IMG/VR virus record: IMGVR_UViG_3300033145_000274
Span: 32,001-96,000 of that record
Origin: a virus
Strand: one strand, 5' to 3'
DNA length: 64,000 nt
Shown: positions 12,301-62,264 of the stretch, one piece after another
How positions within the stretch are numbered: the first letter of the stretch is position 1
How the letters are laid out: every line of letters starts with the position of its first letter
Notes under the pieces: generated by a model
What the model saw: only the letters and a program-made list of their open reading frames with translations
Databases searched by the model: none
Told to the model about the DNA's origin: nothing
Translations under genes and position numbers: made by a program

Positions 12301-12468
12301 GACACCATGAGCAAGGAAGCAACCTCTGTGTGGGTGTCTGTGTGTGATAACACGCCGTCCCACCCCAACCAGCTTGGTTGGCCGCGAATAAGTCGTAGTC
12401 AGCGACTTTGTGCAGTCTGGGGTTGACTTGTGGGCTACCGTGGTGTATAATTGCATGGAGGGCAGAAA

Positions 12469-14424: not shown

Positions 14425-14539
14425 CTTAGCCAAGCAAGGTTATGAGCCTCGCAACGTGTTAGGAAGTTCCAACCTGTCGGCCCGAGAGGACAAGATACCG
14501 AGTGGAAGACACCGAGGCCCTAACGGCGCGACAAAGCCC

Positions 14540-14686
14540 CGTAATGACGTAAGTTGTTGCGGGGCCTTTGTTTATGACAAATAGGTGGCCCCCGGCGTAG
14601 CGTAACTCCTGTCCTACCAACGATTTACAATAATTACAAAAACTTTCAAGCTTCGCTGTTGCATTACCGATAATCTATGATATAAT
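14540..14686 (+). repeat. ACGACTTACG-box promoter element, copy 5
   Basis: CGTAAGTTG, GGCCCCC, ACGATTTAC, TTGCAT-N16(CCGATA)-TATAAT. Confidence 0.8.
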
Positions 14687-14723
14687 AAGTGCATACAACA
14701 AACCACAACCATGGGAGCAAACG

Positions 14724-14885
14724 ATGATGTTGATTAAGCTTGGTTCCACGATTGAGTTGTCTGGACACCCCGTCCAGGTTATTCGGATTGCCAACGACGG
14801 CGTGACCGTCCGGCGTAAAGGCGGCCACTGTCTGAAAATCGACTTGAAACAGGCAGCCCGTGCCGTGACACCCAAACCGGCCTGA
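14724..14885 (+). CDS. small hypothetical protein (53 aa)
   Basis: MMLIKLGSTIELSG after GGGAG. Confidence 0.5.
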   Translation: MMLIKLGSTIELSGHPVQVIRIANDGVTVRRKGGHCLKIDLKQAARAVTPKPA

Positions 14886-14913
14886 TTGGCCGTCTGTGGT
14901 GAGTAGTCAGTGA

Positions 14914-15081
14914 ACCCGTAGGCCGGTCAGCATCGGAGGTAACAGAGCACGAACAATACCGTATGGGGTCAAGTACACGCCCCCTGCAACGGAAAGTACG
15001 CCGTTGGGGATACTGTACGGACGTTCGAGCTTGGAATTACTATTCCCACCGCACAAGCGGGTGCGACTCCCGCTACGGGTA
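14914..15081 (+). ncRNA. tRNA-like RNA with greatly extended anticodon arm
   Basis: ACCCGTA/TACGGGT acceptor, CCGG/TCGG D-arm, GCGGG-TGCGACT-CCCGC T-arm, long central helix. Confidence 0.65.
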
Positions 15082-15234
15082 GCTTATAGTGTAGGCCCAC
15101 ACGGGCCGAATAACGAGGCGTCCAAATCTCCACGCCTACAACCCCGCTACAGCGGGGAGAGACTGTAAGGGAGTAGGACCGGAGCAAAACGCAAAGCGAG
15201 TATCGGTAACCGATTGCCACCTACCCCTTGGCCC

Positions 15235-15380
15235 CACGCGACGTAAGTCGTGGTGGGGCCTTAACTTACGACGATAAGGAGGCCCCCGCATCGCCGTAAA
15301 CCCTGACACAGCAAGGACTTACGACAATCCGAGAAACTTTCAAGTTCCAGTGTTGACTTTCCGATACAATATGATAGAAT
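15235..15380 (+). repeat. ACGACTTACG-box promoter element, copy 6
   Basis: CGTAAGTCGT at 15242, ACTTACGACG, GGCCCCC, GACTTACG, TTGACT-N16(CCGATA)-TAGAAT. Confidence 0.85.
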
Positions 15381-15416
15381 ACATGCTTCCAACACAACAC
15401 ACACATGGAGCGACAC

Positions 15417-19648: not shown

Positions 19649-19868
19649 AGTTGCGGAGAGCAATTTCTGTGCCAATACACAGAAAAAATGAGAGAATAAG
19701 GGCACCGCATACCGGCCCCACCGTAGTGCCGCCCTGTGTCACCCAATCCAACCTGGTTAGTCACCAATAGTCGGTAGTCAGCGAGTGTCAGTGAGCATTG
19801 GGCTTGACAAGAGCGCCAGGAAGTGTATAATAGAATGCGAGCAACTATCGTGCCAACCAACCCAGGAA

Positions 19869-21179: not shown

Positions 21180-21359
21180 CATTGTAAGCGTCCGTCGTAA
21201 GTCTGCGACAAATGACTAAGTATGTCCCTCTCTTGCTCACATGTAGCGAAGTATAACGTTTGTGTTATATTTGGCTACACAGGGCACCAGTCTAGCGTCA
21301 CAGCCCATCCGGCCTGATTGGTCTGGCATGGTCCGTAGCCAGCGACTTTTGTGACGAGC

Positions 21360-41203: not shown

Positions 41204-41265
41204 TAAGGGCTTAGGAACCTTCCTTGTCGTGATTTTTTTTGACACGAATAACCGGAGACAAACCA

Positions 41266-42909
41266 ATGAACAAGAATCTATTTCAGAATCGTGGTATTCA
41301 GCGTGGCGTTCCTACGACAGACAGCCTGAACGCAGCCGGTGGAGCCGCCTACCGTTTGGACGACAAGAGCGCCCTAGCGCAATACGCGGTCACAGGGACG
41401 TTTCAGGACACCTTTTATGTGGGTGCTCAGGACCATTTGCATAATGTCGAGGCATTGGCAGCAGGTTGCGAAGCTGAGTTTATTGCCAAGCTCGCCGTCT
41501 ACGCACGCGAACGAGGTAAAATGAAGGACATGCCAGCGTATCTCTTGGCTGTCCTAGCCGCGCGTGGCGAAACCGACCTGGTAAAGCGTATCTTTTCGCG
41601 TGTGTGTAACAATAGCAAGGTGCTATTAGGTTTTGCTCGTATCATTCGTTCGGGCGCCACTGGTCGTAGTTCGTTCGGTACTGCTATGAAGCGACTAATC
41701 CAAGATTGGATTACAGACAAGAGTAATAAAGGTCTGTATGTATCTAGTATTGGTCATAGCAATCCGTCAATGGCGGACCTTATCAAAATGGTACATCCAC
41801 GACCACGGGATAATGAGCAGTCGGCGATGTTCTCCTACCTTTTGGGTAGGGAATGTGACCACGACCTGTTGCCCGAAGATATTCAGATATTTGAAAGGCT
41901 AAAGCGTGGCGAAGCCATGCGCGGTGGCACGTCATTCGGACCATCCGACAAGATGCCCGACATTCCATTTCGAGCGCTTACAAATTGCGACCTCAGCGCA
42001 GCACAATGGCGCGATATTGCTCTGAACATGCCCTGGAACACCCTGCGTCAATCCCTCAACCTTTTGAGTCGTCGCGGCGTATTTGATGACCTGGGTGTTG
42101 TGCGCAACTTGGCCGTGAAACTAGCCGATGAAGAAAACGTGATGCAATACAATGCTTTTCCGTTTGAACTACTGGCAACGTGGAAGGCCACAAAGGACCA
42201 GGTACCGGTAGAGATTTCTAATGCTCTACAAGAAGCCATGGAAGTAGCTACGCGCAATGTGCCGAAGCTTCCTGGTGAAACCCTGTTGGCAGTAGATGTT
42301 TCTGGCTCCATGTGTGGTGCTGCCATTACCGGACGTAGCGCCAAGCCATCCATCGTAACGGTTGTAGAATGTGCGTCTCTTATTGCGTGTGCCCTGCTAC
42401 GCAACAACAAGTCGGCCTCGTTGATTGGATTTGACAGTGCTCGATATCCGTCTTATCGTCCCAAGGGTCGCTTGGCCGGCGAGGGTGGTATCTATGTTAT
42501 GGACCACATCAATCCGTTTGATAGTGTGATGACTAACGTGTCAAAAATGAATCATAGTGGGGGTGGCACTGACTGTTCACTACCATTTCAATACTTGTTG
42601 GCTAACACTCGTGCCGTAGACAACATCATCATATTGTCAGACTATGAGAGTTGGACTTCGACCTATCGTACCGCTGGTGGTGCCGCAAGCTGTGAACAAT
42701 GGCATAGATATTCGGCCAATCACAAGAAAACCAAGTTGGCCTGTGTGGACCTACAACCACAAGATACAACGCAAGTGCCCGACCAACCAGGTCGTGTAAT
42801 TAACATCGGCGGCTGGAATGACCCCATGTTTCGTGTATTGGGCGATTTCTTTAACCGTAACGACAACATTGACTTCGTGACCGTGATTGAAGACAGTGTT
42901 GAACTTTAG
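41266..42909 (+). CDS. TROVE-domain Ro60 (Rsr) homolog with vWA domain
   Basis: NAAGGAAY, TGTFQDTFY, DLIKMVHPRP, MPWNTLRQSL, vWA MIDAS LAVDVSGSM, GGGTDCS, IILSDYE. Confidence 0.9.
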   Translation: MNKNLFQNRGIQRGVPTTDSLNAAGGAAYRLDDKSALAQYAVTGTFQDTFYVGAQDHLHNVEALAAGCEAEFIAKLAVYARERGKMKDMPAYLLAVLAARGETDLVKRIFSRVCNNSKVLLGFARIIRSGATGRSSFGTAMKRLIQDWITDKSNKGLYVSSIGHSNPSMADLIKMVHPRPRDNEQSAMFSYLLGRECDHDLLPEDIQIFERLKRGEAMRGGTSFGPSDKMPDIPFRALTNCDLSAAQWRDIALNMPWNTLRQSLNLLSRRGVFDDLGVVRNLAVKLADEENVMQYNAFPFELLATWKATKDQVPVEISNALQEAMEVATRNVPKLPGETLLAVDVSGSMCGAAITGRSAKPSIVTVVECASLIACALLRNNKSASLIGFDSARYPSYRPKGRLAGEGGIYVMDHINPFDSVMTNVSKMNHSGGGTDCSLPFQYLLANTRAVDNIIILSDYESWTSTYRTAGGAASCEQWHRYSANHKKTKLACVDLQPQDTTQVPDQPGRVINIGGWNDPMFRVLGDFFNRNDNIDFVTVIEDSVEL

Positions 42910-42961
42910 TTCTCGCTAATAAGCAAGAAAGGCATGTCTCGTTTCTTGCTTATTGAGAACA

Positions 42962-43091
42962 AGGCAAATGCAGTAAAGCATACATGATGAATGTGATGTT
43001 TTGGGGGTGTCGGACGCAAGTCCTAGTCCCCCGCGCTGGCTGATGACCTAAGTATGTAGCCGCAATTAGCGCTTTGCATTATTTGTTGCCT
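42962..43091 (+). ncRNA. candidate Y RNA-like structured RNA
   Basis: Ends AGGCAA-ATGCA-..AAAGC and GCTTTGCAT..TTGCCT pair with bulges; internal hairpins; directly after ro60. Confidence 0.5.
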
Positions 43092-43159
43092 AAAATAAAT
43101 ACCGAGGATGACTATTGTGGTCATCTACGAGACAGACAACAAGGGTCATCGGTCGGTTT

Positions 43160-43232
43160 CTACTAGGCACGCCTGGGCGTGATAGAAGAATAGCATATGC
43201 CTTTTATCAGGAGTTCGACTCTCCTCTAGTAG
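43160..43232 (+). ncRNA. tRNA-like RNA without canonical anticodon loop (YrlA-like candidate)
   Basis: CTACTAG/CTAGTAG stem, AGGAG-TTCGACT-CTCCT T-arm, 7-bp arm with 12-nt loop. Confidence 0.55.
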
Positions 43233-43246
43233 GTTTGGAGTGATAC

Positions 43247-47016: not shown

Positions 47017-47359
47017 GGGCCTGTCATGGTTTCGACAGGATATTGGAGTTTGTGATTGCGTGTCGTGGTTTACCGAATGGCCACGAAAAAAATCGGTAAA
47101 AAACCTTTAATTGGCAATAACATTGTCGAAGGCTTCGCAGTAGCCGGGTTCGCCTCTCAAAAGGCCCCCAACGCTGCCCCTCAGTTCAGCTTTGTTTAAC
47201 GACAAGTTATCTGAGGCGACGGCTTAATCTTGTGCCATAACAAGAGCATATCATATTTAGAGACAGTTTTGTTTGTTGTACAGCTTAACAACAAACTACA
47301 CACGTAGACGTTGCTTAATAAGGTATCGCTGGAAATGGGTTCGACTCCCATCAGGTCCA
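47017..47359 (+). ncRNA. ssrA: tmRNA
   Basis: GGGCCTG/CAGGTCC-A acceptor with G3.U70, 5' GGTTTCGAC, 3' T-arm ATGGG-TTCGACT-CCCAT, tag frame 47113-47199 preceded by UA at -5/-4. Confidence 0.9.
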
Positions 47360-47468
47360 CTTATTTCATACTATTGAAAATTCACATGTGAAACTGGACA
47401 ATGGGATAGTTTTCCGTGTATAATAGTATGGGTAGACGTTAATTTTCAATACATTAGGGGAGAGAGAA

Positions 47469-60431: not shown

Positions 60432-60499
60432 GCCGGTGAAGGTGGTCCAAACGACTCACTCGTAATGAATTGTTCCGAGTTCGATTCTCGGCGCTGGCT
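60432..60499 (+). tRNA. tRNA-Thr(CGT), short D-arm
   Basis: GCCGGTG/CGCTGGC; loop CTCGTAA. Confidence 0.6.
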
Positions 60500-61066: not shown

Positions 61067-62161
61067 ATGAATGCACAATATACCTGGCCACTCAATGATA
61101 ATCATTTTTCATTGATAGATAAGCTACAAATTGCCTACTTTATTCTCAATCCAAAAAATAGATGGACAGAGGACAGGCGCGTACGACAATTAGAGAACGT
61201 CTGGGCAGATATTACTGGATATAAGTACGTTGTGGCCACTAACAGTGGCACATCTGCAATAGAATTGATGGCGCGTGTATATAGAGAAATGCACGGTGTG
61301 GGAACAGTAGCGGTCCCCGCAGTAACATGGCCAACGTCTGTTACTCCATGGATACACGCTGGTTATACGCCTGTGTTTATTGACATTGACCTCAAGACCC
61401 TGTGCATGTCCGAGACGGACTTAAAAAATAAACTGAATGGTCAGAAAGCAAAAGTCGTCTTTCCAACATCTGTGCTGGGCTCACACTGTGAGACAGCTAC
61501 GCTAAAACCCTACGGCACATTGATAGGCGTAGATAATTGTGAGTCAAGCTTTAGTCTCGTAGATTGTCACGAGACATCCGTCACATCGTTATACTTTGGA
61601 CATCAATTTACTACCGGCACAGAAGGTGGATTATTATTCACAAACTGCCAGGAAGAATGTAGATTAGCCGTTCATATGCGCGGACACGGTATGACCAGTT
61701 CGTGGGCTAAATATAACAATGAACCGTGTGAAAAATTTAAGTTTGCAGTTATGGGTTCAAACTATCGTAGTAATGACATCGCAGCATACATGGGCCTGAT
61801 GGACATGCGTAAGTTTGAACACAAACAACGACACAGGAATGCTTTGTATAATGTATTCTGTAGAAATATACGTAAGGAATACCAGCTATTTAACTTGCGC
61901 GGCCCATTTGCTTTGCCAATCATAACTAGTGTAGTTCCACGCGCAAGCCTGATACGCACGGTTGAAGCATTCGGTATCGAAACTCGCCCCATTATTAGTG
62001 GTAATATACTGCGACAACCAGCATTTCAGCAGTATGATAATGGTTCCTGTCCCAATGCAAATTATATACATGACCATGGTTTTTATGTTGGACTACACGA
62101 GGGGGTACCAACGCGAGACATAGTCATGTTAACCGATGTGCTCAACGAAGCATTTTCATAG
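61067..62161 (+). CDS. DegT/DnrJ-fold enzyme, ColD-like GDP-4-keto-6-deoxymannose 3-dehydratase
   Basis: TNSGTSA, VDNCES, SLYFGHQFTTGTEGG with His at the catalytic Lys position. Confidence 0.75.
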   Translation: MNAQYTWPLNDNHFSLIDKLQIAYFILNPKNRWTEDRRVRQLENVWADITGYKYVVATNSGTSAIELMARVYREMHGVGTVAVPAVTWPTSVTPWIHAGYTPVFIDIDLKTLCMSETDLKNKLNGQKAKVVFPTSVLGSHCETATLKPYGTLIGVDNCESSFSLVDCHETSVTSLYFGHQFTTGTEGGLLFTNCQEECRLAVHMRGHGMTSSWAKYNNEPCEKFKFAVMGSNYRSNDIAAYMGLMDMRKFEHKQRHRNALYNVFCRNIRKEYQLFNLRGPFALPIITSVVPRASLIRTVEAFGIETRPIISGNILRQPAFQQYDNGSCPNANYIHDHGFYVGLHEGVPTRDIVMLTDVLNEAFS

Positions 62162-62242
62162 AGGGTCAAGCCAACCGGTGATGGCACTTGATTTGAAATC
62201 AAGCGAGCGCAAGCCTTGAGGGTTCGATTCCCTCACCCTCTG
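62160..62242 (+). tRNA. tRNA-Ser(TGA)
   Basis: CTTGA-TTTGAAA-TCAAG. Confidence 0.9.
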
Positions 62243-62264
62243 CCTTTTATTTAAGGATACACAC

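Follow-up and report, generated by a model that had tools for sequence, protein, structure and literature searches.

Introduction

To our knowledge, tRNA look-alikes of phages have been known since the species 1 and species 2 RNAs of T4, and none of them has a known role. These two RNAs, rnaC (139 nt) and rnaD (119 nt), are small stable RNAs encoded by the side of tRNA genes. They are the closest analogues of the RNA family described in this work. Both the T4 RNAs and our family are longer than a tRNA and do not decode, and rnaC ends in a canonical T arm. However, the T4 RNAs are without the four-way junction that we call domain 2, and an acceptor pairing is not obvious from the T4 sequence. 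Their roles are still unknown (PMC3014915). We refer below to the window, which is the whole stretch of 64,000 nucleotides of phage DNA analysed here, and to the window RNA, which is its member of the family.

The YrlA-type Y RNAs (Chen et al. 2014, PMC4201824) are also non-decoding. They mimic the D and T arms of tRNA, some of them are RNase P substrates, and they are present in phages. They show a GNCGAAN0-1G motif near the 5' end, and their ends pair in a Ro-binding stem (PMC4201824), with a loop closing the 'acceptor'. In contrast, the ends of the window RNA form an open acceptor stem. The GNCGAAN0-1G motif is absent near its 5' end.

In the tmRNA (RF00023), as in the window RNA, the anticodon arm gives way to a large structured insert, which is framed by the acceptor stem and the T arm. 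A first-pass annotation of this DNA had pointed out the likeness and also the lack of a G3.U70 pair. The latter is correct, as pair 3:70 is C-G. Compared with tmRNA, the window RNA also has no tag reading frame, and its 3' end is blocked by domain 2 instead of being a CCA end. Neither ARAGORN nor Rfam makes a tmRNA call here, and the phage has an ordinary tmRNA at 47017-47362 (ARAGORN and Rfam), so the resemblance to tmRNA does not hold.

The tRNA-like structures of plant viruses (Tymovirus, RF00233) and the MALAT1 mascRNA likewise place a tRNA mimic toward the 3' side of a longer transcript. The T arm of the window RNA, GGGUGCGACUCCC, resembles the tymoviral one at 12.6 bits, a score far below the threshold. 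Those elements differ in that they form the extreme 3' terminus, undergo aminoacylation or cleavage by RNase P/Z, and come from RNA viruses or eukaryotic nuclei.

The main text of a 2023 catalogue of 10,006 candidate viral RNAs mentions tRNA-like candidates and none like this RNA (PMC10690425). A 2026 preprint presents three bacterial tRNA-mimic families with other motifs. No published description of an RNA with a tRNA shell and domain 2 was found in the literature searched, and the family is absent from Rfam 15. The new element is the conserved domain-2 junction.

Results

Genomic setting and transcription unit

The window comprises bases 32001-96000 of the 125-kb IMG/VR record IMGVR_UViG_3300033145_000274, which is judged to be about 69% complete. 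The phage carries 20 tRNA genes and one tmRNA (ARAGORN, Rfam). Rfam also calls a weak tRNA (30.6 bits) at window 60432-60499 that ARAGORN misses. The tRNA-Ser(tga) that ARAGORN places at 62160-62244 scores in Rfam slightly above the tRNA-Sec threshold (62159-62242). Outside the window, at G000:C1:108930-109301, an ORF of 231 aa encodes a PolyA_pol/CCA-adding nucleotidyltransferase domain (78.7 bits). A search of the phage record for RtcB was negative.

The RNA locus lies in the early arm, which is a series of promoter-gene-hairpin units. Its unit starts with a promoter at 14659-14686 (+). Read from the sequence, it is of the sigma-70 early type, with TTGCAT, a 16-nt spacer that includes CCGATA, and TG-n-TATAAT. 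A 169-nt repeat (14546-14714 and 15240-15408) puts it in register with the scored promoter at 15353-15380. The ORF list gives next a 53-aa ORF at 14724-14885 (+), with zero matches in Pfam and PHROG. It is followed by about 340 nt without a credible ORF, and by a GC-rich terminator-like hairpin at 15230-15259 (+) that closes the unit. This hairpin, also read from the sequence, has only two U after it. It is positionally homologous to the scored terminator at 14536-14565, and the terminator scan made no call at 15230-15259 itself. The promoter scan of the unit gave the RNA no promoter of its own. The RNA would be transcribed from the early-type promoter at 14659-14686 jointly with the 53-aa ORF. 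The early expression proposed in the first-pass annotation is consistent with this promoter-to-hairpin unit, as far as its early type can be read from the sequence.

The absence of a credible ORF, noted in the same annotation, was confirmed. Only ORFs of 39 and 54 aa overlap the RNA region on the + strand, and the homologous RNA of locus L083 differs from the window by indels and compensatory base changes. An 83-aa ORF on the - strand over domain 3 was rejected. In L083, its frame stops after 19 codons (read by eye).

A dispersed repeat, CCnGCyTGrTTrG .. GTAGTCAGCGA, has copies at 12374-12404, 14882-14910, 19753-19783, and 21314-21344. The copy at 14882-14910 (+) reads ..CCTGATTGG.. GTAGTCAGTGA, with the second part at 14900-14910, and ends 3 nt before the 5' end of the RNA. 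Two of the copies stand about 20 nt 5' of TTGAC -35 boxes. The motif recurs in many related phage loci, e.g., L004, L034, L083, L098, and L108. In L082 and L083, it stands before a small ORF rather than before the RNA. CCGATA(A/C) is kept inside the -35/-10 spacer of early promoters in this phage group, at window 14665-14672 and 15359-15366 and in L082, L083, and L098. The inverted pair ATCGG-TAA-CCGAT in domain 3 of the RNA can be set beside this spacer motif.

The tRNA-shaped domain

The analysis confirmed window 14914-15226 (+) as one structured RNA of about 310 nt with three parts. Every helix drawn in the first-pass annotation is present in the sequence, at the positions given below. The first part is tRNA-shaped (14914-15081, +). 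Its acceptor stem has 7 bp, ACCCGTA (14914-14920) with TACGGGT (15074-15080), and the discriminator A follows at 15081. The T arm, GCGGG-TGCGACT-CCCGC (15057-15073), has a 5-bp stem. The sequence and the constrained fold also give a D-like hairpin, CCGGT-CAGC-ATCGG (14923-14936), and a small hairpin at the variable-arm position, GGAAU-UACU-AUUCC (15033-15046). The small hairpin is missing in L011 and L098, hence it is clade-specific.

At the place of the anticodon stem-loop, there are about 90 nt of branched helices. More precisely, this body (14946-15031, constrained fold) is a long stem that opens into two hairpins. The stem consists of AGC/GCT (14946-14948/15029-15031), CGAAC/GTTCG (14950-14954/15023-15027), and CCGTA/TACGG (14959-14963/15016-15020). 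These stacked helices enclose the hairpin CAACGG/CCGTTG (14987-15006). The other hairpin, GGGG/CCCC (14965-14983), had been overlooked in the first-pass annotation. Both loops contain GUAC (14973-14976 and 14996-14999). A fold constrained by the acceptor and the T arm alone recovers the D-like hairpin, the long stem, both terminal hairpins, and the small hairpin. This fold, together with the covariation of the acceptor and T stems described below, bears out the idea of a tRNA-shaped RNA without an anticodon arm.

As a chance test, we looked for acceptors of 7 bp, with Watson-Crick pairs only, that stand directly against a T stem of 5 bp whose 7-nt loop is of the U..A form. In dinucleotide shuffles, this pattern is expected 0.125 times per strand per 125 kb, and the site at 14914 is the sole strict match in the record. 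Taken alone, this match is only suggestive. A looser scan also catches the tmRNA, long-arm tRNAs, and chance pairings beside real tRNAs. A second match to the tRNA frame, at record 122863-123116, was rejected; it consists of an ordinary tRNA-Arg and a chance upstream pairing.

The T loop, UGCGACU, presents U at loop position 1 and A at position 5, corresponding to U54 and A58. The D-like loop CAGC has no GG, and position 55 of the T loop is G, which departs from a canonical tRNA. On these bases, a canonical elbow in the window RNA seems doubtful. ARAGORN calls neither a tRNA nor a tmRNA over the RNA. In Rfam, there is no relevant match in this region, either at the gathering threshold or at E 10, and RF00005 is absent even at E 10. 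The Rfam comparison suggested in the first-pass annotation thus returned no matching family.

The four-way junction and the 3' domain

Domain 2 (15083-15169, +) is a cloverleaf-like four-way junction that begins two bases after the discriminator. Helix P1, CUUAUAGU (15083-15090) with ACUGUAAG (15162-15169), closes it. Inside are the hairpins P2, GGCCC/GGGCC (15094-15107), P3, AGGCGT/ACGCCT (15116-15121/15132-15137), and P4, CCCCGCT/AGCGGGG (15142-15157), all on the + strand. The linkers GAAUAAC, ACAA, and AGAG of the window are near-invariant. Across the family, about 30 bases of this domain are almost invariant. The first-pass annotation had listed four 'further hairpins' behind the tRNA shape. 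All four are real: three of them are P2-P4, and the fourth (ATCGG/CCGAT, 15202-15214) lies in domain 3. They are not loose extras, as that description had it, and form the most conserved part of the molecule. The idea of a duplicate acceptor (GGGGCAGC after P1) fails across the members and was rejected.

Domain 3 (15170-15226, +) is clade-specific. It has an outer helix, GG.GUAGG/CCUACC, a CGC-AAA-GCG hairpin, and the AUCGG-UAA-CCGAU element. Only the window and L083 have it in common, with 89% identity over 57 nt. Between them, three pairs stay paired despite changes on both sides. These two-sided changes support selection at the RNA level on this domain. The first-pass annotation had seen the tRNA shape as possibly one domain of a ncRNA of about 300 nt. 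This view gains from the covariation of domain 2 in 34 sequences and from the conservation of domain 3 in L083.

Relatives of the RNA

A blastn search with the RNA region against 50,697 phage records gave no match. The same search with three family members also gave no match, and with a fourth member, it gave one short match in phage TJE1. Exact searches of IMG/VR with a 24-mer and a 20-mer of the RNA had zero matches. Searching sequencing runs by words of the RNA pointed to no RNA run and to a single DNA run, from sediment, in which a small fraction of the words occurs. The DNA sediment run contains an identical 157-nt contig and a relative of 15129-15164.

We sought relatives using the downstream GP88 gene (PF17338) as an anchor. 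A scan of IMG/VR with a single GP88 protein had zero matches. With a profile built from 30 GP88 homologues, we obtained 80 viral and 80 metagenome loci. None of the 80 profile-scan loci from IMG/VR matches the RNA in sequence. The locus L083, whose GP88 is 59% identical, has a homologous RNA in the same place. Here, the T stem changes from GCGGG/CCCGC to GUAGG/CCUAC, and the first acceptor pair from A-U to G-C. In this closest homologue, two acceptor pairs are mismatched, and the interior of domain 2 has been lost. Its RNA is preceded by a 96-aa ORF unrelated to the 53-aa ORF of the window.

A structural scan of all loci found tRNA-shaped elements of 173-175 nt located 5' of GP88 in L011 and L098, and blastn added L012. 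The sequence that follows the acceptor in these three elements aligns with window 15088-15165, which had previously been taken for an insertion. We built a model (R1) from L011, L098, and L012, with helices and linkers set by eye and no window sequence. R1 has one match only in the window, at 15049-15181 (21.8 bits, E 0.015). It also matches L112, L119, and one further viral record.

We then turned helix P3 and its flanks into a degenerate pattern, AACGRGGCGTC, 8-36 nt, ACGCCYACAA. It matches 57 IMG/VR contigs, nearly all with the same flanking features. By our estimate, IMG/VR should yield about 4 chance matches, which leaves roughly 50 genuine members among the 57; L210 resembles a chance match. 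The common layout has a T arm and an acceptor strand just 5', then N73-G-C, P1, often a GUAGG hairpin as P2, GAAYAAC, and P3. On the 3' side of P3 come an ACAA linker, the P4 hairpin, a GAGAG linker, the return strand of P1, and usually GGGG. ARAGORN called no family RNA a tRNA or tmRNA in any of the 57 loci. Likewise, the tail corresponds to no Rfam 15 family in 14 viral family loci and to no Rfam family in 14 bacterial loci. In bacterial genomes, the P3 pattern gave 91 matches, nearly all of them chance or coding; a single conserved gene, present in Bradyrhizobium and related alphaproteobacteria, accounts for many. The genuine members there are L285 and L296 only, and their contigs look phage-derived.

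Covariation and family membership

Alignment A6 has 34 members and covers the molecule from the T arm through the whole tail. Standard pairs occupy 93.7% of its pair cells, compared with 37-46% when the partners are slid by 1-3 columns. Both sides change in 22 of the 30 pairs. None of 500 shuffles of A6 reaches any of the observed measures. The covariation signal is found in the T stem, P1, P2, and P4. P3 is almost invariant, in part because the search pattern fixed it.

The acceptor was examined apart. A perfect 7-bp partner (at most one G-U) lies 100-240 nt upstream in 26 of the 34 members, against 1.84 expected in shuffled upstream sequence. These 26 paired members have 26 different acceptor sequences. 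The window acceptor has a perfect 7 bp at a span of 167 nt. Covariation, which the first-pass annotation had named as a check on the fold, is therefore present in both the 34-member alignment and the acceptor.

A further model (R3) was built from the 33 other members, with the window left out. On the window, it scores 100.9 bits (E 6.6e-21) at 15055-15193, and all five helices (T stem and P1-P4) are present. The membership of the window in the family of tRNA shell plus domain 2 is secure because of the A6 covariation, the acceptor partners, and the R3 score. We are highly confident that the window RNA is a real conserved structured RNA of this family. Homology to the T4 rnaC and rnaD was rejected, as models R2 and R3 have no match in AF158101 66000-76000 and no shared motifs were seen by eye.

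Diversity within the family

The shell of L177 has a textbook D arm, GCGC-AAUUGGUA-GCGC, and a textbook T arm. The match of the Rfam tRNA model extends over 140 nt in this locus (42 bits), and the anticodon stem contains an insert of 78 nt. By this sequence, the shell is clearly derived from tRNA. Several other members keep a D loop containing GG and a UUCGAAU T loop. In the window clade (window, L183, L011, L098, and L189), the T loops read UGCRAYU or similar, and the D-like hairpins lack GG; therefore, the elbow may be altered in this clade.

The body types vary widely. In 9 of the 28 distinct members, the body is a long stem with two hairpins that have YUGAUC(A) loops. The similarity of these GAUC loops to the 3' end of 16S rRNA was judged coincidental. 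The window body shares the layout of the YUGAUC members, with GUAC in both loops, and GGCC occurs twice in L083. That three distinct palindromes fill equivalent positions suggests that the loops contact each other or form a site for a dimeric protein, less strongly than the covariation argues for the helices.

The neighbourhood of the RNA is not uniform. No neighbouring protein cluster is common to more than 8 of the 50 loci. In 11 of the 57 loci, ARAGORN calls a tRNA gene no more than a few hundred bases away from the RNA, a placement like that of T4 rnaC and rnaD. In L083, L011, L098, L082, and the window, the RNA starts 1-30 nt past a stop codon, inside a promoter-to-hairpin unit.

Other tRNA-shaped RNAs, of 125-131 nt, occupy the same slot 5' of GP88 in L082:1203-1327, L017/L019:2763-2893, and L034:2678-2807. 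Their T loop is a canonical UUCGANU, and a search with R3 gave no domain 2 in L082, L017, and L034. The slot 5' of GP88 seems to accept interchangeable tRNA-like genes.

In L184, L192, L196, L200, L207, and L296, another conserved 5' element (..AAAGGGTCAG..GCTAAGCGTGCGG..) precedes the P3 core in place of a T arm. L192 carries in addition a type II hammerhead (179-242).

Finally, the cultured Tetrasphaera phage TJE1 has a domain-2 junction at L321:1503-1559, which is NC_019930 37778-37834 (R3, 34 bits). It is without P2 and has no obvious T arm upstream. It lies in a 1.7-kb gap without an annotated gene.

Discussion

Proposed role of the RNA

The explanation that best joins these results, and that we regard as reasonably probable, is that 14914-15226 (+) would be a gene for a ncRNA of about 310 nt. 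It would be formed by a tRNA shell and a tail, be released by RNase P, and act in trans as a mimic. We are more tentative about the mechanism by itself. An RNase P-released, trans-acting, non-decoding tRNA mimic would be the most likely mechanism, and we hold it as possible with limited confidence. Host RNase P would cut at 14913/14914 because the acceptor and T stems form a 12-bp stack, which is a classical RNase P determinant. The leader is A/U-rich in the family up to the first acceptor base, and such a leader would fit 5' processing. Domain 2 begins two bases past the discriminator; therefore, the attached tail would block the CCA end, and aminoacylation would be excluded while it is attached. 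The released RNA would then occupy or redirect in trans a conserved host factor that handles tRNA. The tRNA genes close to the RNA in 11 of the 57 loci and the CCA-adding-type nucleotidyltransferase of the phage agree with this explanation.

No neighbouring protein is common to the family, and the ORFs that precede the RNA in the window and in L083 bear no relation to each other. For this reason, the comparison argues for a self-contained RNA that would work with conserved host machinery. A near-invariant junction in unrelated phages, with no co-occurring phage protein, would likewise be compatible with a universal host target. The first-pass annotation had considered a decoy for anticodon nucleases. 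This is unlikely, because neither the window RNA nor any other family member has an anticodon loop. The RNA may be a decoy or sponge that captures factors recognising the acceptor/T half, or domain 2 may have a new function. In a bolder reading, which we consider unlikely, domain 2 would be a new RNA module (a ribozyme, a ligand-binding junction, or a binder of RNase P, the ribosome, or EF-Tu). This module would be carried on interchangeable tRNA shells and other scaffolds for an early takeover of host tRNA metabolism that does not depend on proteins.

Alternative explanations

The mascRNA type of RNase P recruitment sets the 3' end of MALAT1. A cis-acting element of the upstream mRNA could work in a comparable way, with the tRNA-like fold recruiting RNase P to make the 3' end and the tail protecting it from exonucleases or tuning termination. 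The short distance to the stop codon inside one promoter-to-hairpin unit, seen in the window and four other loci, is what such an element would show, and so is the lack of a separate RNA promoter in the unit. Nevertheless, the upstream ORFs are unrelated across members, and the 11 loci with a nearby tRNA gene also count against such an element. The approximately 30 invariant bases of domain 2 across very different phages also far exceed the needs of an end-forming signal, and we find this explanation quite improbable. The palindromic hairpin loops raise another idea, that the RNA assembles with itself, within or between molecules, and that the shell is only a scaffold for folding or processing. 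Large phage-associated RNAs occur near tRNA genes, and a self-assembling RNA would in principle be a small relative of them. The YUGAUC(A) loops on the two body hairpins and the three palindromes in the same places agree with it. However, the bodies of most members are without such loops, the second GGCC of L083 is outside any hairpin loop, and the loops also share a non-palindromic CAAG..ACG, which makes a protein site equally possible. Self-assembly is accordingly given a very small probability. The least credible explanation, with almost no probability in our judgement, is an intron-interrupted tRNA gene, or a decayed remnant of a tRNA or integration site without a function of its own. Such intron-containing genes and tRNA fragments do occur in phages, and the shell is clearly tRNA-derived. 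Against an intron, no group I or II model matches (the best is a sub-threshold 12-bit group II D1-D4 fragment, with a gathering score of 49), and the insert is only about 90 nt, whose removal restores no anticodon loop. In a remnant, the acceptor, T stem, P1, P2, and P4 would not have been maintained by compensatory changes across dozens of phages.

The phage also has a Ro60 homologue of 556 aa at 41239-42909 (+), with TROVE (26 bits) and Ro60 vWA (49 bits) domains. It matches the D. radiodurans Rsr (2nvo) at E 1.3e-12. The window RNA could be the Y RNA partner of this Ro60/Rsr, with its tRNA-like domain acting as in YrlA to tether Ro60 to an exoribonuclease or to gate its cavity. The Y RNAs of bacteria and phages are tRNA mimics, one of which RNase P cleaves (PMC4201824); in domain 3, GGACCGGAG is loosely like the GGUCCGA contacted by Ro60. 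We think this very improbable. The Ro60 gene is 26 kb from the window RNA, whereas known YrlA genes lie within about 4 kb and on the same strand (PMC4201824). The Ro60 gene is immediately followed by an ORF-free gap of 340 nt (42910-43246, +), whose fold is much better than that of shuffles (z -6.1). Within this gap, at about 43160-43233, there is a separate tRNA-like element (CUACUAG ... AGGAG-UUCGACU-CUCCU-CUAGUAG), which neither ARAGORN nor Rfam calls. This gap is a better Y RNA candidate than the RNA at 14914-15226. The topology of the window RNA is also opposite to that of YrlA, ending at the acceptor stem and not at the Ro-binding stem, and neither YrlA nor any other Rfam family matches the RNA region. 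A TROVE protein is present in 2 of the 49 RNA-bearing viral records and in 1 of the 8 near-complete ones. With only 2 of 49 records, a coupling of the RNA family to Ro60 was rejected.

Significance

At minimum, the family of tRNA shell plus domain 2 is missing from Rfam and from phage annotation. It is a defined and testable object, with a junction of about 30 fixed bases, strongly covarying helices, and dozens of natural variants with swapped bodies. Among cultured phages, at least Tetrasphaera phage TJE1 carries the tail too. If it is true that the tail binds a universal host factor or is catalytic, the family would represent a new RNA-based control of translation or RNA processing by phages.
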